Source of the DNA: an uncultured bacterium
Lineage (GTDB): Bacteria; Eisenbacteria; RBG-16-71-46; CAIMUX01; WJJG01
NCBI GenBank assembly: GCA_964573295.1
Contig: CAZNJE010000022.1
Coordinates: forward strand, 5,761 to 69,760
Length of the DNA: 64,000 nucleotides
Direction: 5' to 3'
In this document: positions 31,160-57,247 of the stretch, in pieces
Position numbering within the stretch: position 1 is the stretch's first letter
Layout of the letters: every line of letters starts with the position of its first letter
The notes under the pieces: generated by a model
Told to the model about the DNA's origin: nothing
The model's input: the letters and a program-made list of their open reading frames with translations, nothing else
Database searches by the model: none
Made by a program: the position numbers and the translations under genes

Positions 31160-31278
31160 AGGTAGATCTCCTCTCTGCTTCTCTCCGGGCGTCGTGCCCG
31201 CCGGCTGCTTGCCGGTTCCGATGCCCACCCCTAGCGACCGATAGCATTCTGCATGCCGGTGCTCCGGGGACACCTCCC

Positions 31279-32866: not shown

Positions 32867-32898
32867 GGGCAGTCTGCACTCGCCAGCGTGCAGACTGC
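32867..32898. promoter_or_regulatory. Inverted repeat GCAGTCTGCAC-N8-GTGCAGACTGC in the tatA / minor-pilin divergent intergenic region; candidate regulator-binding site
   Basis: It is an 11-bp perfect inverted repeat. The same core TGCAGTCTGCA occurs twice upstream of pilA (49020-49030 and 49089-49099). Confidence 0.4.
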
Positions 32899-33141
32899 GT
32901 GTCGCTCACCCTCCTCCGGCCGTCCGGCGGCCGCGGCATCACGGGAATCCTATCTGTAGTCAGCACCGCATGCCACTGCCTTTCCACAAGTTATCGCACT
33001 GGCTCGAGCCAACCAACCACCGGGCCGAGGGGAATGCGATGTGCAGGCAATAGAAGTGATGAACCATGCCACTTTGGCTGGGCGGCCCCGCGAGGGCGCA
33101 TCCGGCCGGCGGGGCAACAGCTACCAGCGGGGACCGAAGCC

Positions 33142-46703: not shown

Positions 46704-47676
46704 CTACGCCGCGCGCCGCGCGCCTTTGCCGTCCTGGTTCTCGCGGATGACCCGTTCGAAAAAGCGCTCGAGGCCCTCGCGTTCCGGGGAGACGGCCACG
46801 ATGGGCGCGCCCTCCCCCAGCAGCCGGCCCAGCGCGGCCGACACATCCGCCTTCGCCTGCGCGGGTACCTCCCAGGCCTCTTCCCCGTGACGAAGCGTTC
46901 GCGCGAGAACCCCGGGCGGGGCCGCGACGCGCCGGCCCCGATAGATGATCCTCACCCGGCCCTGATCCTCGCGCAACAGCTCGTCCAGGCTGCCATGCGC
47001 TAGAATCCGGCCGTCGGCCAGCAGCGCCACCCGATCGGCCAGCGATTCCACGTCAGGAAGCACGTGCGAGTTCAGCCAGACGGTCTTCCCTTCCGCCCGA
47101 AGACGCCGGATGAGATCCTTCGTCGCCGCCCGCGCCTCGGGATCGAGGCCGCCGAGGGGTTCATCGAGCAAGAGCAGCTGCGGGTCCGCCAGGAGCGCGG
47201 CGGCCAGGGTCACTCGCTGCAGCCATCCGCGCGAGAGCTTGCGGACTCTCTGCCGGCGACGGCCTTCGAGACCGCATAGCTCGATGACCTCCATCCGGCG
47301 GGCACGGCGCTGGGCCGCCGGCAGCTCGCACAAGCCGGCCATGAAGTCCAACGTCTCGTCCACGGTGAGCGCGGGGTACAGGTACGGTTGCTCGGGCTGG
47401 TAGCCAACGCGTGCCCGGGCCCGGCGGTCGCCGAGCGGGTAGCCGAGCACGCTGCCCCGTCCGCTGTCGGGCCGCACCAGACCCAGGAGTAGCTTCATCA
47501 GCGTGGTCTTGCCCGCGCCATTGGGCCCCAGCAGGGCAAACACCTCCCCCGGCGCCACGCGGAGCGAGACATCCCGCAGCACGGGTACCGGCCTCCGGCG
47601 CAGCCCGGTTCGGAAGGTCTTGGCGAGGCCTTCGAAGCGAACCACATCCTGCTCGATCGTTGTCATGCGCATTCCT
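46704..47676 (-). CDS. ABC transporter ATP-binding protein (PilH-like)
   Basis: Walker A is GPNGAGKTTL, the signature is LSRGWLQRVTLAAAL, and Walker B is LLLLDEP. The ATG at 47676 is preceded by GAGGAA. Confidence 0.8.
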
Positions 47677-47685
47677 CGCGTCCCC

Positions 47686-48075
47686 TCACCCGTTGGTGAG
47701 GGTGATGACAATACGGTCAGCCCCATAGCCCTCCACCGTGTAGATGCGACCGTCGGTGCTGTAGCCGATGTTGCCGGGGCGCAGCTCCGGCGGTCCGATC
47801 ACCGACGGTTCGCCCGTGAATGGATTGGGCGGATAGACCCCGCGGGGAAAGAGCCCCGGGGCCAGGTCGCCCAGCTCCGGCATGGCGCCGTCATGCGCGG
47901 CGGCCCAGTCCTCGACCACCCGTTGCACCGTGCGCGCGTTCTGTCGCACCTGGAACTCGCGCTCCCGGTCTCGCCGGTTCACGAGTTGCGGAATCGCCAG
48001 CGACAGCAGGATAGCCGTCACCAGGATCACCACCCCGAGCTCGAGCAGGGTGTATCCGCGCGAAGCGCCTCGCAT
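47686..48075 (-). CDS. pilA: Type IVa major pilin paralog 2 (129 aa)
   Basis: The ATG at 48075 is preceded by GGGGGAG. The class III signal is MRGASRG^YTLLELGVVILVTAILLSLAIPQL. The C-terminus ...VITLTNG is shared with paralog 1. Confidence 0.75.
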   Translation of the reverse strand: MRGASRGYTLLELGVVILVTAILLSLAIPQLVNRRDREREFQVRQNARTVQRVVEDWAAAHDGAMPELGDLAPGLFPRGVYPPNPFTGEPSVIGPPELRPGNIGYSTDGRIYTVEGYGADRIVITLTNG

Positions 48076-48097
48076 GAACTCGTCTCCCCCCAAGTGG

Positions 48098-48140
48098 AGT
48101 ACGCCTGAGCAGAAGTACGCCTGAGTAGAAGCACGCCTGG
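48098..48140. repeat. Tandem ~16-bp repeat AGTACGCCTGAGCAGA x ~2.7 upstream of pilin paralog 2
   Basis: It is seen directly in the inter-pilin spacer. Confidence 0.5.
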
Positions 48141-48340
48141 CCGGGGTTGCCCGGCAGGCCCCCTTGGATCACTCCCGTATCCCTGATCTCACACCCGACT
48201 GGATCACCGGCCGTGCATCTCCGCCTCATGCCCGAGTCTATCGACTGGCCGCCCCGACCCCGGCCTCATGCCCGAACGGACCGGCGAGCCGCTGCCCTCT
48301 ATGATCGGCCGCCGAGGGGGGGGGCTTGAATCTGGGGCAC

Positions 48341-48378
48341 GAAAAAGGGGCCAGACCCCTCGGAAGGGGCCTGGCCCG
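48341..48378 (-). terminator. Rho-independent terminator after pilin paralog 1 (hairpin GGGCCAGGCCCCTT-CCGA-GGGGTCTGGCCC followed by UUUUU on the minus strand)
   Basis: The stem-loop is followed by a T-tract on the coding (minus) strand. It lies 24 nt downstream of the pilA1 stop. Confidence 0.6.
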
Positions 48379-48401
48379 TCAGACCAACGAGTGCGGGGGG
48401 A

Positions 48402-48791
48402 CTAGCCGTTGCTCAGGGTGATCACCACTGCGGTCTCACCGTAGCCTTCGACATCGTAGACGCCCGCCGCCAGCGCATACCCAAGGTCGCCCTGGCTGAA
48501 ACCAGGAGCCGCAATACCGCAGGGATTGCCGGTGAACGGATTGGTCGGGAAGACGCCTCCCGGGAACAGAGCGGCCACGATGTCGGCCAGCGCCGGATAG
48601 GTCGCGCCGTTGCGTACACTGAAGTCCTCGACCACCAGCTGCAGGGAGTGCGCATTGGCCTTGACGCTACCTTCCTTGGCCCGATTGGTCATGGAGATGT
48701 AGTTGGGAATCGCGATCGCTGCCAGAATGCCAATGATGACCACAACGATCATGAGCTCGATGAGGGTGAAACCCTTGTTACTGCGGAACAT
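48402..48791 (-). CDS. pilA: Type IVa major pilin paralog 1 (129 aa)
   Basis: The ATG at 48791 is preceded by GAGGAGG 8 nt upstream. The class III signal is MFRSNKG^FTLIELMIVVVIIGILAAIAIPNY. The C-terminus is ...VITLSNG. Confidence 0.8.
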   Translation of the reverse strand: MFRSNKGFTLIELMIVVVIIGILAAIAIPNYISMTNRAKEGSVKANAHSLQLVVEDFSVRNGATYPALADIVAALFPGGVFPTNPFTGNPCGIAAPGFSQGDLGYALAAGVYDVEGYGETAVVITLSNG

Positions 48792-48892
48792 CTCAAACAC
48801 CTCCTCTTCGTGGTACCTCACACGTGGCCGTCTGGCGGCATCGTGTGAGGTCGACCACACTCCGCTCAGACAACCGTTCTTGTCCCTTTGTA

Positions 48893-48908
48893 TGCAGTCC
48901 CCGTGCCA
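48893..48908 (-). promoter_or_regulatory. Sigma-54 (-24/-12) promoter candidate TGGCACGGGGACTGCA upstream of pilA paralog 1
   Basis: The minus-strand reading is TGGCAC-N5-CTGCA, which matches the GG-N10-GC spacing. It lies ~100 nt upstream of the pilA1 ATG and downstream of pilR, which encodes a sigma-54 activator. Confidence 0.5.
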
Positions 48909-49019
48909 GCAAAGGCTGACGCGGAGGACAATTTCTAACTGCTTCACTTTCAGAGAGTTGGAACGTTTGGACCCCCCCGGCGATCCCGCTCTCGTCCCCT
49001 CCGTTCGGCGCGCCGGCGA

Positions 49020-49099
49020 TGCAGTCTGCAAGCGGGGTGTTCAAGTTGCGAACGCTCGCTGCAATCTGCGAACGCAGGCGTCCGGACGTGCAGTCTGCA
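49020..49099. promoter_or_regulatory. Two copies of the palindromic motif TGCAGTCTGCA (49020-49030 and 49089-49099; centres ~69 bp apart) plus TGCGAACGC repeats in the pilR-pilA intergenic region; candidate PilR upstream activating sequences
   Basis: The motifs are seen directly. They lie 110-190 bp upstream of the sigma-54 element. The same core occurs at 32869-32898. Confidence 0.45.
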
Positions 49100-49103
49100 T
49101 GCA

Positions 49104-50501
49104 TCAGGCCGCCTCGGCCTCGGCCTGCGGCCCGTTGTCGGATTGCTTGTCGGTCATGTCGTAGCCGACCAGCTTCCGGTAGAGGGTCGAGGCATTGATG
49201 CCCAGGATCTCGGCTGCACGCTTCTTCTGCCAGCCGGTGTGGTTGAGTACCTTGAGGATGTACTCCTTCTCGAGCTCCTCGAGGCTCATCGTCGGGCTGT
49301 CGACGATGAAGCTGCCCTTGCGCGTCGGCCCTTGCACCACCTGTTCGGGCAAATCTTCCATGCCGATCTGATCGTGCTCACTCAGAATGACCGCCCGTTC
49401 GATGACGTTCTCGAGCTCGCGGACATTGCCCGGCCAGTCGTAGCGCATGAGGCAATCCATGACCTCGCGCGAGAGGGTCTTGAGACCGTTGGGGCCGGGG
49501 AAGCGCGCCAGAAAGTGATCGGCCAGAAGCGCGATGTCGTCCCGGCGCTGGCGCAAGGGCGGCAACCGCACCGGAATCACGTTGAGCCGGTAGAAGAGGT
49601 CGTGGCGGAAACGGCCCTCGCTGACCTCCTTCTCCAGGTCGCTGTTCGTGGCGGCCACCAGGCGGACGTCGATCTTGAGCGCTTCGTTGGCCCCGATCGG
49701 GATGATTTCCCGTTCTTGCAGGGCCCGCAGCAGCTTCACCTGGGTGGCCGGCGCCATCTCGCCCACCTCGTCGAGAAAGAAGGTGCCGCCTTCGCAGACG
49801 ACGAAGTGCCCGGGCTGGTCCTTGACCGCTCCGGTGAACGAGCCCTTCTTGTGGCCGAAGAGCGTACTCTCGAGCAGATCCTTGTGCAGCGCTCCGCAGT
49901 TGATCGACAGGAAGGGGCCCTTCGCCCGCTGGCTACGGTAGTGAATCTCGCGCGCGATCAGCTCCTTGCCCGTGCCGCTCTCGCCGAAGATCAGCACGGT
50001 CGCGTTGGTGACGGCCACCTTCTCGACCATCTTGTAGACCTTGAGCATCTCTTCGGAGCGGCCGATCAGCCGCCGATCCTCGTGACGCTTCTTGAGCTGC
50101 CACTTGAGAACCTCGTTCTCCGACCGCACCCGGCTCATGGCGAGCGCGTTGCCCACCGCCAGCAGGATCTCCTCGTTGCGGGCGCTCTTCTCGACGAGCT
50201 GGAAGGCACCTCGCCGGATCGCCTCGGCCGCCACCTTCTCGGTACCGTAGGCGGTCAAGATCACCACCGGCAGGTCGGGGTACTTGGCGTGCATCCCATC
50301 GAGGACGCTCAACCCATCGACCCCCGGCATCTTCAGGTCGGTGATGACCAGATCGAAGCTGTCGCGATCGAGCCGGCTGATGCCGTCGGCTCCATTCTCG
50401 AGCGCGGTGACCTCGTACCCTTCGCTGACCAGGAGCATGCTCAGGAAGCGGCGCATGCTATCTTCGTCATCGATGACCAGTATGCGGTGCTTACGATCCA
50501 T
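49104..50501 (-). CDS. pilR: Sigma-54-dependent response regulator PilR (NtrC family)
   Basis: The ATG is at 50501 (MDRKHRILVIDDED, the receiver). The AAA+ sigma54-interaction domain has GESGTGKE and the GAFTGA loop variant GSFTGA. The C-terminal Fis-type HTH is AAEILGINASTLYRKL. Confidence 0.9.
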   Translation of the reverse strand: MDRKHRILVIDDEDSMRRFLSMLLVSEGYEVTALENGADGISRLDRDSFDLVITDLKMPGVDGLSVLDGMHAKYPDLPVVILTAYGTEKVAAEAIRRGAFQLVEKSARNEEILLAVGNALAMSRVRSENEVLKWQLKKRHEDRRLIGRSEEMLKVYKMVEKVAVTNATVLIFGESGTGKELIAREIHYRSQRAKGPFLSINCGALHKDLLESTLFGHKKGSFTGAVKDQPGHFVVCEGGTFFLDEVGEMAPATQVKLLRALQEREIIPIGANEALKIDVRLVAATNSDLEKEVSEGRFRHDLFYRLNVIPVRLPPLRQRRDDIALLADHFLARFPGPNGLKTLSREVMDCLMRYDWPGNVRELENVIERAVILSEHDQIGMEDLPEQVVQGPTRKGSFIVDSPTMSLEELEKEYILKVLNHTGWQKKRAAEILGINASTLYRKLVGYDMTDKQSDNGPQAEAEAA

Positions 50502-50577
50502 GCCCCATCCGTCATGTGCCACAGCTGTGCCACGGTGTCGGTTGTGAATTCATGCGGTTCTTCGGGGACGATGCGCG

Positions 50578-52305
50578 TCAGGCCGCCGCGGGATCCTGTT
50601 CCCGTGGGGTAGGACCGTCGACCGGCAAGTCGACGAAGACTCCTCCGCCCGCGGCCGGTCTCTCCCCGAACCCGATCCGGCCCTCGTGCTCATGAACGCC
50701 GCGCTGGGCGATCGCCAGGCCGAGCCCGCTCCCGGCCGGCTTGGTGGTGCAGAAGGGCCGGAAGGCCTCCTCTTCGCTCACTCCCTGAAGCCCCGGTCCC
50801 TCGTCGCACACCCACACCCGGACCCACGCCCGGCCTTCCTGCGCCAGGCTTTCCAGCCAGACGCGCACGGTGCCACCGGGAACCGCCTCGAATGCGTTGA
50901 GCAGAAGATTCCGAAAGACTTGCCGTAACCACTCCCGATCCCCGTAGATCCCGAGCCCGGTAGCCCCCACCACCTCCAACCCCGCGGAATCCAACGTCTT
51001 CCCCACGGCCAGCGCCCGCGCCTCCTGCCTGATAAAATCTTCGAGATCGATCCATTCCAACTTCAACGTTTTGTCCCGGGACAGGGTCAGGAACTGGCTG
51101 AGGAACGCCTCGAGCGAGTCGGCCTCGCGCTCGATCAACTCGAAGACCGCCTGGGTCTGTTCGCCGATCGCGCCCATCCGTTGGAGCAGGTCCACTGAAC
51201 CGCTGATCGGTTTGAGCGAGTTGCGCATCTCGTGCGCCAGCCCCGCCGAGAGCTCACCGATCATGGCCATGCGCTCGCGTTCACCGGCCTTACGTTCGAG
51301 GGCCTTGCGCGCGGACATGTCCCAGAAGAGCCCGACCGCCCCACGGGTTCGCCCCTGCGGGTCGATGACCGGAGTCACCTTGACCCAGGCGGGAAAGTCG
51401 CCTCCGTCCGAACGGGTGAGCACGCACTCGGTGTCGCACGCTTCGCGGCCCGGTCCGAGCGAGGCCCGCAGGTGGCTGAACAGCGCCTGGTTCGCGCCGA
51501 CCAACCTCGCCGGCAGCACGGTCGCCGACTCGGGGAGTCTAAGCAGGTGCCTCGCCTCCGGGTTCAGCGAGCGCAGCAGGCCGTCGGCATCCACCGCCAC
51601 TAAGCCGCAGCCCATGCTCTCGACGATCCGGTCGGTGCTCAGGCGGATTTCCTCGAGCGCGACGCGGGTTTCCGCCGCCTCCCGGAGGGTGTTCGCCATG
51701 CGCTGGGCAAGCCATCCGGCGGCCGCACCCATGGATCCGAAGAAGAGGCCGTGGAATCCAACGCGCATCCACAGCCCGGCGACGGTTACGCTCGCGGGCC
51801 GGTCGGCGAACGCCATCAATCCATAGAGCCCGGCGGTCAGAATGCCGCTGAAGAATCCGAAGCGGGCATGGGCCACCAGTCCAGCGGCCAGAACGGGCAG
51901 CGCAAGAAGCAGAAGGGTGGGGCTGTGGATCGAGCCGCTGGCATGGACGGCCAGCGCGGCGGCGAGGGCGTCGCCCAGTAGTGTGGCGCGCAGGAGAATC
52001 CCTTGGCCGGCACCTTCACGCTGACGATGCAGCCACCAGCTGCTCGCAACGGTCCAGAGCATGATGGCGAAGGCCGGCAGCCGGGAACCGTCCTCCCCGA
52101 TCCAGACGCTCTCGAGTGCCGCGAGCAAGACGATGAAGGCCCCGATCACGGCGCGAACGAGGATGATCCGCCGGGGCACTCGCGCTGGCCCGTGCGGTCC
52201 CCCCGGGTGCGCCCCCCCCGGGTTCGCCTCCCCCCTGTGCGGGGGCGGCGGCCCGGGGCCGGGCTCCGGCGAACGGGCGGCCGATGCCCGGTCCGGCACG
52301 ATCAA
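50578..52305 (-). CDS. pilS: Sensor histidine kinase PilS-like (polytopic membrane N-terminus, PAS, HisKA, HATPase_c)
   Basis: It has ~6 TM helices. The H-box is MIGELSAGLAHEMRNSL, the N-box is FRNLLLNAFEA, and the G-boxes are DEGPGL...GSGLGLAIAQR. It lies immediately upstream of pilR. Confidence 0.8.
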   Translation of the reverse strand: MIVPDRASAARSPEPGPGPPPPHRGEANPGGAHPGGPHGPARVPRRIILVRAVIGAFIVLLAALESVWIGEDGSRLPAFAIMLWTVASSWWLHRQREGAGQGILLRATLLGDALAAALAVHASGSIHSPTLLLLALPVLAAGLVAHARFGFFSGILTAGLYGLMAFADRPASVTVAGLWMRVGFHGLFFGSMGAAAGWLAQRMANTLREAAETRVALEEIRLSTDRIVESMGCGLVAVDADGLLRSLNPEARHLLRLPESATVLPARLVGANQALFSHLRASLGPGREACDTECVLTRSDGGDFPAWVKVTPVIDPQGRTRGAVGLFWDMSARKALERKAGERERMAMIGELSAGLAHEMRNSLKPISGSVDLLQRMGAIGEQTQAVFELIEREADSLEAFLSQFLTLSRDKTLKLEWIDLEDFIRQEARALAVGKTLDSAGLEVVGATGLGIYGDREWLRQVFRNLLLNAFEAVPGGTVRVWLESLAQEGRAWVRVWVCDEGPGLQGVSEEEAFRPFCTTKPAGSGLGLAIAQRGVHEHEGRIGFGERPAAGGGVFVDLPVDGPTPREQDPAAA

Positions 52306-53525
52306 TGCCCTCCGCTGCCCGCCACCACGTTGATCAGCTTGAACATGGGCAGGTACATCGCCACGACCATGCCGCCGACCGCTACGCCCATGACCACGAT
52401 CATGACCGGCTCGATGATCGAGGTCAGCGTCTCGACGGCCGTATTGACCTCTTCGTCGTAGAAGTTGGCGATTTTCTCGAGCATCTTGTCCAGCGCGCCC
52501 GTCTCCTCCCCGACCGAGATCATCTGCACCACCATCGGCGGAAACACCCCGGCTTCTTTCAACGGCTGGGCGATGGTTTCACCCTCGCGGATGCTGGTCT
52601 TGGTGGCCATGATCGCCTCTTCGATGATCTTGTTGCCAGCGGTGCGGGCGGTGATATCGAGCCCGGAGAGAATGGCCACCCCGCTACTGATCATCGTACC
52701 CAGCGTGCGCGTGAAGCGGGCGATCGAGCCCTTGCGCAGCAGGTCGCCGATCACCGGCGACTTGAGCAGGAGCTGGTCGATCTGGCGCCCACCTCGCTCG
52801 GTCTTGCGGTAGCGCTTCAGCGCGACGACGAGGACGACGATAGCACCCACGATGACATACCACGTCTGCTTCAAGAAATCGCTCGCGTTCACCACGAGCT
52901 GCGTGGGCAAGGGCAACTCGCCGCCGAAATCGTCGAAGACGTCCGCGAAGACCGGGATGATGAAGAGCAGCATGAAGAGCATCGCCCCACCGGCGACCGA
53001 CATCACGACCGCCGGATAGGTCATTGCGCTCTTGATCTTGCGCTTCAGGGCCTCGGCCTTCTCGATGTAGGTAGCCAGGCGCTGGAGGATCTTGTCCAGA
53101 ATACCGCCGGCCTCGCCCGCGTCGACCATGTTGACGTAGAGCGAATCGAAGGCATGGGGATGCTTCGCCATCGCTTCGGCCAGCGTGGTACCGGCTTCCA
53201 CATCGTGCATGACGTCCTGGATGATCGAGCGGAAGTTACCATCGTCGGTTTGCTTCGAGAGGATGTCCAGACACTGCACCAGCGGAAGTCCGGAGTCGAT
53301 CATGGTCGAGAACTGCCGGGTGAAGATCGCCAGGTCACGCCCGCGCACACCGCGCTTGCCCTTGCCGAAGCTGAAGGAGACGCCCTTCGCCTTCGGGCGC
53401 ACCTGCGTGACGATGATCCGCTTGCGGCGCAGTTGCGCCAGCGCGTCATCGCGGTCCTGGGCCTCCATTTCGCCGGAGCGGACCTCGCCTGCGGCGGTCC
53501 GTCCTTTCCAGGTAAAGACGCTCAT
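52302..53525 (-). CDS. pilC: Type IV pilus inner-membrane platform protein PilC (GspF family)
   Basis: It has two tandem GspF domains (…FTRQFSTMIDSGLPLVQCLDIL… and …FTRTLGTMISSGVAILSGLDI…). It is 407 aa. Confidence 0.9.
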   Translation of the reverse strand: MSVFTWKGRTAAGEVRSGEMEAQDRDDALAQLRRKRIIVTQVRPKAKGVSFSFGKGKRGVRGRDLAIFTRQFSTMIDSGLPLVQCLDILSKQTDDGNFRSIIQDVMHDVEAGTTLAEAMAKHPHAFDSLYVNMVDAGEAGGILDKILQRLATYIEKAEALKRKIKSAMTYPAVVMSVAGGAMLFMLLFIIPVFADVFDDFGGELPLPTQLVVNASDFLKQTWYVIVGAIVVLVVALKRYRKTERGGRQIDQLLLKSPVIGDLLRKGSIARFTRTLGTMISSGVAILSGLDITARTAGNKIIEEAIMATKTSIREGETIAQPLKEAGVFPPMVVQMISVGEETGALDKMLEKIANFYDEEVNTAVETLTSIIEPVMIVVMGVAVGGMVVAMYLPMFKLINVVAGSGGH

Positions 53526-54655
53526 GATGCCTTCCTTCTGGCCTCAGTGCCGACCCCGCGTCCGAAAACCTGGTGCCGGGGACGGTAGGTCGCATCGGCC
53601 TTCATGAGAATGGACTCGAGCTCCTGCACATCCGAGCTGCGCGAGAGCGCCTCGTCCAGCGTGATCTTCCGGCTCTGGAAGGCCTGGAAGAGCGCTTGGT
53701 TCATCGTCATCATTCCGTACTTGGCGCCGGCCTGCATGAGGCTGTAGATCTGGTGTGACTTCCCTTCCCGGATCAGGGCGCTCATCGCCGGCGTGCACAC
53801 CAGGACCTCGGAGATGTTGATCCGCCCGTGACCGCCGCGGCGCGGCACGAGCTGCTGCGTCACGATGCCGCGCAGGACGAAGGCCAGCTGGGAGAAGACT
53901 TGCTTCTGCTGGTTGGTGGGAAAGACATCCACGATGCGGTTGATCGCCTCGTAGGTCGAGTTCGTGTGCAGGGTCGCGAATACCAAGTGTCCGGTTTCAG
54001 CAATCGTCAGGGCGGCCTGAATGGTCTCGAGGTCGCGCATCTCACCGATCAGGATGACGTCGGGGTCCTGGCGCAAGACGTATTTGAGCGCCTGCGGGAA
54101 ACTGTTCGTATCGGAACCGATCTCGCGCTGGTTGACGATCGCGCGCTTGTGTTGGTGCACATACTCGATGGGGTCTTCGATCGTGATGATGTGGCAGGAA
54201 CGTTCTTCGTTGATCTTATCGATCAGACCCGCCAGCGTGGTCGACTTGCCGCTCCCGGTCGGGCCGGTGACGAGCACGAGCCCGTTGGGAGAATCGGCGA
54301 ACTCGCGGACCGCCTTCGGCAGCCCGAGTTCCTCGACCGTCATGATGCCGAACGGAATCATCCGGATGGCCCCGGTGGTGACGCCCCGCTGGGAAAATAC
54401 GTTGGCACGGAACCGCGCCAGGCTCTTGATGCCGAAAGAGAGGTCGAGTTCGTGCTCGTTTTCGAAACGCTTCTTCTGGTCGTCGCGCAGAATCGAGTAG
54501 ACCAGCTTCTCGCAGGTCTCCGGATCCAGCGGATCGTGCCCGCTGGCATCGAGCACCCCATCGACTCGGAATTGCGGCGGGACGCCGGCGGTCAGATGCA
54601 AGTCCGACGCGCCCCGTTCCACCATCTCGGCCAGCAAGTCCCGCAGGGATACCAT
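53522..54655 (-). CDS. pilT: Twitching motility retraction ATPase PilT
   Basis: Walker A is GPTGSGKSTTL. The Asp box, Walker B and His box are present. The PilT-specific C-terminal AIRNLIRE-like sequence is ALIREGKSHQIYS. Confidence 0.95.
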   Translation of the reverse strand: MVSLRDLLAEMVERGASDLHLTAGVPPQFRVDGVLDASGHDPLDPETCEKLVYSILRDDQKKRFENEHELDLSFGIKSLARFRANVFSQRGVTTGAIRMIPFGIMTVEELGLPKAVREFADSPNGLVLVTGPTGSGKSTTLAGLIDKINEERSCHIITIEDPIEYVHQHKRAIVNQREIGSDTNSFPQALKYVLRQDPDVILIGEMRDLETIQAALTIAETGHLVFATLHTNSTYEAINRIVDVFPTNQQKQVFSQLAFVLRGIVTQQLVPRRGGHGRINISEVLVCTPAMSALIREGKSHQIYSLMQAGAKYGMMTMNQALFQAFQSRKITLDEALSRSSDVQELESILMKADATYRPRHQVFGRGVGTEARRKAS

Positions 54656-54832: not shown

Positions 54833-56545
54833 CTAGATCTCTTCGTCGGATGCGGTTTCCTTCAATACTTCTTCGGCGGAAGTGATGCCCTGCTTGAGTT
54901 TCAGCAGCGCATCCATACGCAGGGTGAGCATCCCGTCGGCGACCGCCTGCCGCTTGATCTCGGGGGTCGCGGCGCCCCGGATGATCATCTCCCGAATCTC
55001 GGCACTGATCGGCATGACCTCGTAGAACCCGGTTCGGCCCTTGTAGCCGGTCTGGTGGCACAGATCGCAGCCCACCGGCTCGTAGAACTCATCACCGTCG
55101 GTGGCGCCGCCGACGTTCTTGATCTGCAGGCGCTCGAGCAGTTGTGGCGAGAAGTCCGCCTTTTTCCGGCAGTTCTGGCACAGCCGACGGCCCAGCCGCT
55201 GTGCGAGAATCAGATTCGTGGAGGAGGCGACCAGGAAGGGCTCCATCCCCATGTCGATCATGCGGTTCAGGGTGCTGGGCGCGTCGTTGGTGTGCAGCGT
55301 GGAGAGCACGAGATGGCCGGTGAGGGCGGCCTTGGTGGCGATCGATCCGGTCTCCATGTCGCGGATCTCACCCACCATGACGATGTTCGGGTCCTGGCGC
55401 AGAAAGGACTTGAGGGCGGCGGCGAAGCTCAATCCGACCGAATCGTGCACGTGAACCTGGTTGATCCCGTCGAGGTTGTACTCGACCGGATCCTCGGCCG
55501 TCATGATGTTCACATCCGGAGTGTTCAGCCGCGAGAGGACCGAGTAGAGCGTGGTCGTCTTGCCGCTTCCGGTCGGGCCGGTCACGAGAACCATGCCATA
55601 AGGGCTTTCGACCGCCCTCAGGAAGTTCTCGAGCGCCTGCGGATGGAACCCGGCCTGCGTGAGGTCGAGTTGCAGATTGGTCTTGTCCAGGATCCGGAGC
55701 ACGACCTTCTCGCCGTAGATGCACGGGAGGGTGGATACACGCAGGTCGATCATCTTCTTGCCGATGCGGATCTTGATGCGGCCGTCCTGGGGCAGGCGGC
55801 GCTCGGAGATGTCCAGATCGGACATGATCTTCAAGCGCGAGATAATCGCCCGGCGCAGCTTGAGCGGCGGCGTCATGCGTTCATAGAGCGTGCCGTCGAT
55901 GCGGAACCGGACCCGCAGAGATCTCTCGTAGCACTCCACGTGGATGTCGCTGGCGCCCTCGTTGACGGCCTGGGCGATCATTGAATTGACGAACTTGACC
56001 ACCGGGGCCTGCTCGGCGGCGTCCGGATCGGTCTCGCTCTCGCTCTCGCTTTCGTCCTCCTTCTCGACGACCTCGAGATCATCTTCCATCGACTTCATCA
56101 CCTCGGCCATCGAGAGGACCGAGTCGTAGGCTCGATCGATGGCGCGTTTGATCTGGTCTTCGGTCGAGACGAACGGCTCGACCTCCAGGTTGGTGATGAA
56201 CTTCACGTCGTCGATGGCGAAGAAGTTGGCGGGATTCGACATGGCCACCATGAGCTGGCGGCCCAGGCGCCGGAACGGCAGGAGGGTGAACTTCGTGGCC
56301 ACGTCGGCAGGGATCAGACGGGCTACCTCGGGGTCGACCTCGGTCTCATCGAGATTCACGCTGGCGGTGCCGAAGTGATCGCCGAGGAAGCCCAGGAGCT
56401 GCCCTTGGTCGATCGCCCCGATCTTGACCAGGTGCGTCAGGACGTCGCCGCCCTGCGACTTCTCGATCTTCTGGGCCTCCTTGAGGTGGTTCTCAACCAC
56501 CAGCCCGGCTTCCAGCAGCCGTGCGCCCAGATCAGCCTTGGTCAC
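54833..56545 (-). CDS. pilB: Type IV pilus extension ATPase PilB
   Basis: It has an N-terminal GSPII-like domain. Walker A is GPTGSGKTTTL. The tetracysteine motif is CQNCRKK...CDLCHQTGYKGR. It is 570 aa. Confidence 0.95.
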   Translation of the reverse strand: MTKADLGARLLEAGLVVENHLKEAQKIEKSQGGDVLTHLVKIGAIDQGQLLGFLGDHFGTASVNLDETEVDPEVARLIPADVATKFTLLPFRRLGRQLMVAMSNPANFFAIDDVKFITNLEVEPFVSTEDQIKRAIDRAYDSVLSMAEVMKSMEDDLEVVEKEDESESESETDPDAAEQAPVVKFVNSMIAQAVNEGASDIHVECYERSLRVRFRIDGTLYERMTPPLKLRRAIISRLKIMSDLDISERRLPQDGRIKIRIGKKMIDLRVSTLPCIYGEKVVLRILDKTNLQLDLTQAGFHPQALENFLRAVESPYGMVLVTGPTGSGKTTTLYSVLSRLNTPDVNIMTAEDPVEYNLDGINQVHVHDSVGLSFAAALKSFLRQDPNIVMVGEIRDMETGSIATKAALTGHLVLSTLHTNDAPSTLNRMIDMGMEPFLVASSTNLILAQRLGRRLCQNCRKKADFSPQLLERLQIKNVGGATDGDEFYEPVGCDLCHQTGYKGRTGFYEVMPISAEIREMIIRGAATPEIKRQAVADGMLTLRMDALLKLKQGITSAEEVLKETASDEEI

Positions 56546-56797
56546 CGTGCGGACTCCTCATTGATTCTCCGCCGCATACTCCTCCCCATCGCACGGTCGG
56601 CATCCCTGAAAGCGGCGGGAAGCGAACCACATCAGCGTTCGGCGGGAGTCGATCTGCGTTGGATACCACGCCCTGTATCCCTCTGCGCCGAGGGAGACAA
56701 CTCGCGTGCCACCGGGGGAGGTGTGAGAAATGGTATGAGGAACTCTTCGGAATGCATTGATATTCGGATCGTTACGTACGCCAATCCGATAAAGGGT

Positions 56798-57247
56798 CTA
56801 GGGCCGTACGGCCGAATCGGCCATGCATTGCGAGAATCGCAATCCGGTCGCGTGCAAGCTGCACGGCTGGGCCACCGTGACGAGCCCGGCCAGATCGCTC
56901 AGCCGTCCGGGCCCGATTCCCCGGACCTGCCGCAGCTCGGCCACACTGCCGAAACGGCCCACCCTACGCCGGTAGGCCAGGATTCGCCCGGCCAGCGTCG
57001 GCCCGATCCCCGGCAACGCCTCCAGATCCAGGCTGTCGGCGAGGTTCAGGTCGAGGAACCCGTCCCGAAAGACCGTTTCCGGCCGGCCCCGGATTGGCGC
57101 GAACGAGCCATCTCTCGTGCTGTCGGGCAACGCCGCAGCCGGATCGGGCTCACGCCAGAGGAGTTCGGCGGCGCTCACCAGGTACCCGCCGGCCAGCAGG
57201 ACCACCAGTGCTCCCAGAAGGCGGCGCTCGGCCGCGGTGAAGGTCAT
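56798..57247 (-). CDS. comEA: ComEA-like helix-hairpin-helix DNA-binding protein
   Basis: It has an N-terminal signal anchor. The tandem HhH motifs are LDLNLADSLDLEALPGIGPTLAGRILAYRRRVGRFGSVAELRQVRGIGPGRL. Confidence 0.7.
   Translation of the reverse strand: MTFTAAERRLLGALVVLLAGGYLVSAAELLWREPDPAAALPDSTRDGSFAPIRGRPETVFRDGFLDLNLADSLDLEALPGIGPTLAGRILAYRRRVGRFGSVAELRQVRGIGPGRLSDLAGLVTVAQPCSLHATGLRFSQCMADSAVRP

Follow-up and report, generated by a model that had tools for sequence, protein, structure and literature searches.

A putative PilR enhancer with four operator sites upstream of a predicted sigma-54 promoter for pilA in Candidatus Eisenbacteria

Control of the major type IV pilin by PilR and sigma-54 is textbook knowledge. 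To our knowledge, the operators of PilR have been worked out for just a few Proteobacteria, and we know of no cultured member of Candidatus Eisenbacteria. Another regulator of this type, NtrC (NR-I), binds at glnAp2 as dimers, with a Fis-type helix-turn-helix, to dyad sites with TGCA(C) halves, and the presence of several sites promotes its oligomerization 100-150 bp upstream of the sigma-54 promoter. Here, we examine the spacer between pilR and pilA in a 64,000-nucleotide stretch of DNA from an uncultured member of the Eisenbacteria (GenBank assembly GCA_964573295.1, contig CAZNJE010000022.1, positions 5,761 to 69,760 of the forward strand). We refer to this whole stretch as the window, and all coordinates are positions within it. 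An earlier note on this DNA had proposed that the spacer contains a sigma-54 promoter and, farther upstream, two copies of a palindrome that might be bound by PilR.

PilR and sigma-54 control pilA in both Pseudomonas aeruginosa and Myxococcus xanthus (PMC6058289, PMC6211767), and the M. xanthus pilA promoter is a sigma-54 promoter that depends on PilR (PMC6211767). The published PilR site of P. aeruginosa is TGT-N11-ACA, with GTCT elements (PMC8035640, PMC6058289). PilR from Lysobacter is described without a site of the Pseudomonas type (PMC8035640), so it is an example of PilR operators that do not transfer between lineages. A study of the recognition site of Geobacter PilR is among the works cited in PMC6058289. 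Outside of the pilus systems, AtoC of Escherichia coli binds two verified sites at atoDAEB, GCTATGCAGAAATTTGCACA and its inverted twin GCTATGCAGAAAATTGCGCA, which are spaced 21 bp apart between -184 and -144 at a sigma-54 promoter (PMC3118216). A literature search found no account of pilus regulation in Eisenbacteria.

In the window, a spacer of 312 nt separates pilR (49104-50522), which encodes an NtrC-family sigma-54 enhancer-binding response regulator, from pilA1 (48402-48791), which encodes a major type IV pilin of 129 amino acids (Pfam N_methyl). Both genes are on the minus strand. Given the features of this spacer and of its counterparts in relatives, we consider it quite likely that it contains a promoter for the pilin gene that depends on sigma-54 and is activated from a PilR enhancer farther upstream.

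The relatives were gathered by PilR-based scans of genomes and metagenomes. PilR from locus L001 is 90% identical to PilR in the window; several other loci are at 57-66%, including L002, which is from a genome labeled Candidatus Eisenbacteria, and many loci from Gemmatimonadota are about 50% identical. More distant pilR genes came from Aminicenantes-like, acidobacterial, and deltaproteobacterial bins. In about 40 related loci, a pilin gene lies directly after pilR; the scans for PilR homologs also returned many NtrC-family paralogs without an adjacent pilin gene, and these were excluded from the analysis. Seven complete clusters (L161-L167, with PilB 71-91% identical) were obtained via homologs of PilB, and four more loci (L168-L171) were obtained via homologs of PilV. 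Synteny is identical across L161-L167: in particular, pilR is beside the major pilin gene and the genes for pilus assembly.

The proposed promoter is TGGCACGGGGACTGCA (48893-48908, minus strand), with a predicted transcription start near 48882. It matches the -24/-12 consensus: GG and GC are exactly 10 nt apart, and C replaces the consensus T before TGC. Nothing else in the 64 kb matches TGGCAC-N5-YTGCW exactly (0.11 matches expected). Because 11 of 100 shuffled sequences also had at least one exact match, the match by itself is only mildly unusual. Comparison to relatives is more informative. Using a position weight matrix (PWM) built from 32 pilA-upstream promoters of related loci, with the window excluded, 48891-48910 ranks first in the window (13.9 bits). 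The distance to the gene is also kept. The pilin ATG is 102 nt below the 3' edge of TGGCACGGGGACTGCA; measured from the start of the element, the distance to the ATG is 117-130 nt in the nine closest loci (117 in the window), and across the 32 related pilR-pilA spacers the element lies 44-128 nt before the ATG. Thus, the promoter that the earlier note had proposed was correctly located, and it is supported by its status as the sole exact match, by its rank with the PWM, and by its conserved distance to the ATG. A promoter scan found no sigma-70-like promoter in 47500-49600. No terminator was seen between pilR and pilA; the only terminator in 47500-49600 follows pilA1.

Two other matches to the sigma-54 PWM deserve mention here. 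The second-best match in the window, TGGCACAGCTGTGGCA (50517-50532, minus strand), overlaps the GTG that is annotated as the pilR start; L161-L167 lack it, so we treated it as a chance match. The fifth-best match, the sigma-54-like CGGCATGCAGAATGCT (31243-31258, minus strand), is upstream of a small zinc-ribbon (FmdB-like) gene.

Upstream of the promoter is an array of four dyad sites. Reading the minus strand, site 1 is TGCAGACTGCA (49089-49099), an exact palindrome that lies just 5 nt after the pilR stop codon; site 2 is CGCAGATTGCA (49060-49070), with a conserved left half, TTCGCA; site 3 is CGCAACTTGAA (49040-49050), which is degenerate; and site 4 is again the exact palindrome TGCAGACTGCA (49020-49030). 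From site 1 to site 4, the spacings are 29, 20, and 20 bp, and the centers of the sites lie 118, 138, 158, and 187 bp from the GG of the -24 element. This bears out the enhancer layout, upstream of the promoter, that the earlier note had put forward, with some changes to the details. The two palindromes that it described are exactly where it placed them (TGCAGTCTGCA is exact at 49020-49030 and 49089-49099), but they are the outer members of an array of four sites, not two. It also described TGCGAACGC repeats; these are present (49048-49056 and 49067-49075), but they are not separate elements: each is the TTCGCA half-site, plus flank, of an inner site (sites 2 and 3). As the note had also argued, the motif differs from the PilR site of P. 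aeruginosa, and TGT-N11-ACA does not occur in the spacer (48909-49103).

The array stands out statistically within the window. Allowing up to one mismatch, TGCAGTCTGCA has six strand-matches, versus 0.91 expected, and none of 100 shuffles reached this count. Three sites fall within 100 bp, versus 0.017 such windows expected, which is the densest cluster of the motif in the window. PWMs derived from relatives also rank 49087-99, 49020-32, and 49060-72 at the head of the window. With a PWM from the Eisenbacteria relatives only, site 1 is the top match (17.9 bits); with the combined PWM, site 4 is the top match (17.1 bits) and site 2 is second (14.7 bits).

Conservation in relatives is the main evidence that the array is not due to chance. 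Expectation-maximization motif discovery on the promoter-distal part of the relatives' spacers, with the window excluded, found CGTGCA-N3-TGCA in seven Eisenbacteria loci and TGCA-N3-TGCAAG in 13 Gemmatimonadota loci. The spacing of 29-30, 20, and 20 bp is also found in L001, L161, L162, L163, L164, and L166, which are all from Candidatus Eisenbacteria, with PilR 63-90% identical. These six loci have a counterpart of site 1 at the equivalent position, and in L001, L161, and L162, site 2 is likewise 29 bp from site 1. Even the degenerate site 3 has counterparts in register in relatives (TGCGAGATGAA, CGCAAGATGAG, and CGCAGAACGCG). Summed over the array, L164 has 9 mismatches to TGCA-N3-TGCA and six other loci, one of which is the window, have 3-5, versus at least 11 in 200 shuffles. 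The distance from the center of site 4 to the GG of the -24 element is 118-120 bp in seven of nine loci. The distance to the pilR stop codon ranges from 7 to 24 nt among loci, and the 3-bp spacers within the sites vary (GAC, GGC, GAG, TCC, GGG, and others), as do the flanks. A protein-bound enhancer would be expected to show just this pattern, with half-sites that are conserved, spacers that are free to change, and a promoter at a rigid distance.

The PWMs have some limitations. The matrix from Eisenbacteria only learned its CG flank from just seven sequences, and it missed the sites in L163 and L164, so we used the exact core TGCANNNTGCA to count how specific the motif is to pilus genes. The Gemmatimonadota matrix transfers poorly to the window because it gives weight to the flank CTTGCA. 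In one Gemmatimonadales locus (L005, 4452-5030), the pilR-pilA spacer is expanded to 582 nt by a repeated GC-rich element (CGTCATTGCGAGGAG...GACGAAGCAATCCCGCCGCC), which looks like a small dispersed repeat that was inserted upstream of the enhancer.

Exact copies of the core are confined to the regulatory regions of pilus genes. In the 152 kb of L161-L167, every one of the 13 exact copies of TGCANNNTGCA falls in one of two places, the pilR-pilA spacer or the 450 bp upstream of pilB, which together account for 3.6% of the sequence (binomial P about 2e-19). The window itself has three exact copies of TGCA-N3-TGCA (0.72 expected; three were reached in 4 of 100 shuffles), and again, all of them are in the pilR-pilA spacer (two) or upstream of pilB (one). 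Since the palindrome was also recovered de novo from relatives, its designation as a regulatory motif in the earlier note seems sound. That note did not mention the operators at pilB and at the minor-pilin genes, which we describe next.

A ComEA-like gene contains, in its 3' end, the copy upstream of pilB (56853-56863, within CGTGCAGCTTGCACG; PWM score of 17.0 bits). About 140-165 bp downstream of this copy is a sigma-54-type promoter, TGGCACGCGAGTTGTC (56697-56712, minus strand), which is the third-best match to the sigma-54 PWM in the window and is about 150 nt before the start of pilB (56545). A site of the TGCA-N3-TGCA type precedes pilB in all seven related clusters (exact in five, with one mismatch in two), and L161-L167 have a promoter of the form TGGCAC/TGGCAT-N5-xTGYx at the equivalent place before pilB. 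There is also a pair of one-mismatch operators, GGCAGTCTGCA (32868-78) and TGCAGACTGCG (32889-99), which are 21 bp apart (32868-32899). A tatA-like gene and an operon of PilV/PilX/FimU-like minor pilins, of which the pilV-like gene is first, diverge from the spacer that contains this pair. In relatives, the 21-bp operator pair is found in this minor-pilin spacer in L168 and L170, and sites of the motif class, as identified with a relaxed pattern, are found in L169 and L171. The minor-pilin operon also has a weak sigma-54-like promoter, GGGAATGCGATGTGCA (33030-33045, plus strand), 98 nt before the pilV-like ATG (33142); it retains the GG-N10-GC spacing and has a poor -24 half. Its counterparts are GGAATGGGATCTGCA in L169, GGTATGTCTTCTGCA in L168 and L170, and GGGCACACCCTCTGCA in L171: in each of these four loci, the GG-N10-GC element terminates in CTGCA and precedes the minor-pilin ATG by about 100 nt. 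Overall, TGCA-N3-TGCA appears to mark a small pilus regulon of pilA, pilB, and the minor-pilin operon, with the promoter of the latter being tentative.

Is PilR the protein that binds these sites? The regulator contains Response_reg, Sigma54_activat, AAA_lid_14, and HTH_8 domains (Pfam), and its translation includes the loop GSFTGA, which is of the GAFTGA type, and the Walker A motif GESGTGKE. It did not reach the cutoff of any NCBIfam equivalog: the best was AtoC (450 bits versus a cutoff of 714), and NtrC and ZraR also matched below their cutoffs. The score is so far under the AtoC cutoff that the protein is not an AtoC. No PilR model was among its NCBIfam matches. As no curated model claims this regulator, the name PilR rests on gene context. 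The PilRs of L161 and L162 begin at MDRKHR, so the true start of pilR in the window is probably the ATG at 50501 and not the annotated GTG.

Operator types correspond to the recognition helix of the adjacent PilR. We divided the loci by whether the helix resembled ..G(I)(N/D)xSTLYRK.. (28 loci; this is the type in the window) or ..(F/Y)R(S/T)xRY.. (14 loci). Of the loci with the STLYRK type, 20 of 28 have TGCA-N3-TGCA, with at most one mismatch, and none have TGACA-N5/6-TGTCA, even with up to two mismatches. For the RxxRY type, the same thresholds give TGCA-N3-TGCA in 1 of 14 loci and TGACA-N5/6-TGTCA in 11 of 14. In both classes, the first operator is usually just after the pilR stop codon. 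This tracking of operator type with recognition helix, across phyla, supports the PilR assignment in the earlier note; binding by PilR is itself our inference. PilR is also the only sigma-54 activator whose gene was found in the conserved clusters L161-L167. This correspondence hints at the residues that determine specificity.

In ten of the loci with the RxxRY helix (L030, L037, L055, L068, L103, L106, L113, L134, L148, and L155, which are Aminicenantes-like, deltaproteobacterial, and acidobacterial bins), TGACA-N5/6-TGTCA palindromes lie just after the pilR stop codon and are followed by a sigma-54 promoter before pilA. TGACA-N5/6-TGTCA looks like a second, distinct class of candidate PilR operator.

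If these assignments are correct, then the pilA promoter would work as follows. RNA polymerase with sigma-54 would be held as a closed complex on TGGCAC-N5-CTGCA (48893-48908). PilR would be phosphorylated by the PilS-like kinase that is encoded just upstream, and its dimers would bind the four (C/T)GCA-N3-TGCA sites (49020-49099) via the C-terminal Fis-type helix-turn-helix. The 20-bp spacing of three of the sites would place dimers on roughly one face of the helix and favor assembly of an active AAA+ ring. The DNA would loop across the intervening 118 bp or so, and ATP hydrolysis would open the promoter, so that pilin mRNA would run from near 48882 to the terminator at 48348-77. Looping might be aided by an AT-rich patch between the enhancer and the promoter (48920-48959), with a GC content of 0.45 in a window that is 66% GC. 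AT-rich patches are found at the same place in L161, L165, and L166. By eye, no consensus site for IHF was recognized in 48920-48959; the patch is possibly a bend or a site for an architectural protein. Because of the operator at pilB, PilR could also activate its own expression, if pilB-pilT-pilC-pilS-pilR are co-transcribed.

We considered other explanations for these features. The palindromes might be bound by a regulator other than PilR, such as a second enhancer-binding protein or a repressor that co-regulates pilus genes. The identity of the binding protein does rest on inference, TGCA half-sites are used by several proteins of the NtrC family, such as AtoC (PMC3118216), and in M. xanthus, a second NtrC-like regulator, NmpR, acts near pilR (PMC6211767). 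The minor-pilin spacer, with its operators and a weak sigma-54 promoter, also fits this idea. Nevertheless, we think that another regulator is unlikely: across phyla, a different recognition helix in the neighboring PilR goes with a different type of operator, and in both helix classes, the first site tends to directly follow pilR, which is the sole gene for a sigma-54 activator that was found in the conserved clusters. A repressor is a poor fit because the sites are 118-200 bp upstream of sigma-54 promoters and at a fixed distance from them, which is the position of an enhancer.

Two further explanations deny a role to the promoter or to the sites themselves. It could be that pilA is mainly transcribed from a promoter for another sigma factor or by read-through from pilR, and that the -24/-12 match is not a working promoter. 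Read-through is conceivable because no terminator was seen between the two genes, and both the rate of exact matches in shuffled sequences and the CTGCA at -12, where relatives have TTGC, favor this view. But nine close loci keep the element 117-130 nt away from the ATG, such promoters were recovered upstream of pilA in 32 loci, the enhancer-promoter distance is fixed, and the scan of 47500-49600 for a sigma-70-like promoter found none, so we consider this explanation very unlikely. We give the least credence to the idea that the repeats act as RNA (in the 3' end or terminator of pilR, or in a structured leader) or are chance or repeat-element sequence without a function. Any two such palindromes do form inverted repeats, so that 32869-32879 could pair with 32888-32898 in an 11-bp stem, and site 1 almost abuts the pilR stop codon. 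However, a stem of 4-5 bp with a loop of 1-3 nt is not a stable hairpin, and no run of T follows. An Rfam scan of 47500-49300 for known RNAs gave only noise below the thresholds. The operator sites are upstream of the predicted start and hence would be absent from the pilA mRNA. The half-sites are kept while the spacers vary, and covariation of base pairs is not needed as an explanation. Finally, a repeat element would be dispersed, but the copies occur in the regulatory regions of pil genes only.

Some observations do weigh against a PilR-driven sigma-54 promoter at pilA, or against parts of the wider regulon. The distance between sites 1 and 2 (29 bp) is not an integral number of helical turns, and the TGCA halves are 7 bp apart, center to center, which is short for a helix-turn-helix dimer on successive major grooves. 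It may be that the protein also touches the flanks (CGTGCA...TGCACG), or that it binds in some other geometry than the one proposed here; the conserved flanks CGTGCA...TGCACG and CTTGCA...TGCAAG suggest 15-bp sites with half-sites about 9 bp apart, with the exact geometry being tentative. The more distant L165 and L167 retain the motif and not the four-site layout. The -12 element of the window is CTGCA, versus TTGC in all 32 of the relatives that were used to build the PWM, which is a minor weakness. The minor-pilin promoter is tentative because GGGAATGCGATGTGCA scores low with the PWM from pilA promoters, and the scan of the source genome for the motif covers its 64-kb window only. For the association of helix and operator, phylogeny is a confounder and so, in part, is base composition, as the RxxRY group is mostly AT-rich; the GC-rich loci of that group (L046, L055, L109, and L155) behave like the rest of their class. 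More generally, PilR binding and its stoichiometry, looping, expression, the transcription start, autoregulation, and dependence on RpoN are predictions from sequence for an uncultured lineage.

The surrounding genes form a type IV pilus cluster on the minus strand of the window, in the order pilB (54833-56545), pilT (53522-54655), pilC (52302-53525), a PilS-like kinase (50578-52305), pilR, the spacer, and the pilin gene. From pilB to pilR, the gaps between genes are 178, -4, -4, and 55 nt. The kinase contains HisKA, HATPase_c, and PAS domains above the Pfam cutoffs, and its candidate membrane domain scores 21.7 bits against 6TM_PilS, just below the cutoff of 27. The pilin encoded by pilA1 (ATG at 48791-48789) has the leader MFRSNKG, with cleavage before FTLIE; it has an NCBIfam prepilin domain above the cutoff and a weak match to the Myxococcus type of PilA. 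pilA1 is followed by a strong intrinsic terminator (48348-48377, minus strand; a 13-pair stem and then a T run), a second pilin-like gene, a pair of ABC transporter genes, and genes for a TPR protein, a prepilin peptidase, and pilM. The second pilin-like gene (47686-48150, minus strand; 129 amino acids) has an unusual leader of RG and then YTLLE. It does not match Pfam N_methyl, and the PWM scan found no sigma-54 promoter upstream of it (48075). Directly before this gene, at about 48100-48145, is a tandem repeat of about 15 nt, CAGGCGT(G/A)CTTCT(A/G)CT.

The predicted 5' untranslated region of pilA (48792-48882, minus strand) contains a conserved block, GAACGGTTGTCYGAGCGGAGAGTGG, then a hairpin, CCTCACACG...CGTGTGAGG (48818-48852), and a Shine-Dalgarno sequence, GAGGAGGTGTT. 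The leader is conserved in L001 and L161-L166. In the consensus fold, the 5' block pairs with the Shine-Dalgarno region, with compensatory changes in 6 of 26 pairs, and the fold of the single sequence has a z-score of -2.3. The scan of 47500-49300 found no match to Rfam. This leader may be a translational control element.

A broader interpretation, which we hold with less confidence and view as slightly more probable than not, is that the PilRs of Eisenbacteria and Gemmatimonadota are a separate DNA-binding subclass (with the STLYRK helix and TGCA-N3-TGCA operators), and that Eisenbacteria have a three-promoter pilus regulon that is controlled from rigid enhancers. If so, then in Eisenbacteria, PilR would control pilA, pilB-pilT-pilC-pilS-pilR (with positive autoregulation), and the minor-pilin operon; four sites would make up the pilA enhancer, the last of them fixed at 118-120 bp from the -24 element; and, through the conserved pilA leader, translation would be a second level at which the pilin is controlled. 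The two subclasses of PilR would be a natural specificity-swap pair for studying how sigma-54 activators with a Fis-type helix-turn-helix choose their DNA. In any case, for two phyla that have been little studied, Candidatus Eisenbacteria and Gemmatimonadota, the analysis provides an operator and an enhancer layout that are concrete and can be tested, and the operator can be used to predict pilus regulons from metagenome-assembled genomes. We view this as a useful annotation and a modest comparative result, not as a new mechanism.

How does this locus compare to the described systems? The switch itself is familiar; what appears to be new is the operator of this lineage, which is laid out as four sites, occurs at three pilus promoters, and is tied to a distinct recognition helix that is shared with Gemmatimonadota. 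As in the PilS-PilR systems of P. aeruginosa, M. xanthus, and Geobacter sulfurreducens, the regulator has the same order of domains and is encoded beside a PilS-like kinase and a pilin gene. The predicted -24/-12 promoter, roughly 100 nt ahead of pilA, and the several activator sites farther upstream are also points in common. The gene order, with pilB-T-C-S-R-A and then an ABC transporter, a TPR protein, and pilD, resembles the Myxococcus cluster (PMC6058289, PMC6211767). Unlike in P. aeruginosa, the operator is TGCA-N3-TGCA and the recognition helix is ..STLYRK.. rather than ..FR(S/T)xRY.., and in the window, the operator is also found before pilB and the minor-pilin operon.

Beyond the pilus regulators, AtoC is the best curated family for this PilR, and its sites are a direct precedent for the TGCA halves, the periodicity of 20-21 bp, and the distance class (PMC3118216). 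AtoC differs in that its halves are 6 bp apart instead of 3, in having two sites rather than four, and in its role in breaking down short-chain fatty acids. By protein sequence, the closest solved structure is the DNA-binding domain of NtrC1 from Aquifex aeolicus (PDB 4l5e and 4l4u; E = 1e-7), with the helix ..ILGIPLRTLY(K/R)RL.. versus ..ILGINASTLYRKL.. in the window's PilR; the likeness is of protein sequence only, as the organism and the regulon differ. NtrC itself recognizes TGCACC-N5-GGTGCA, and the operator in the window is GTGCA-N3-TGCAC, so both the orientation and the spacing of the half-sites differ, as do the regulated genes and the kinase.

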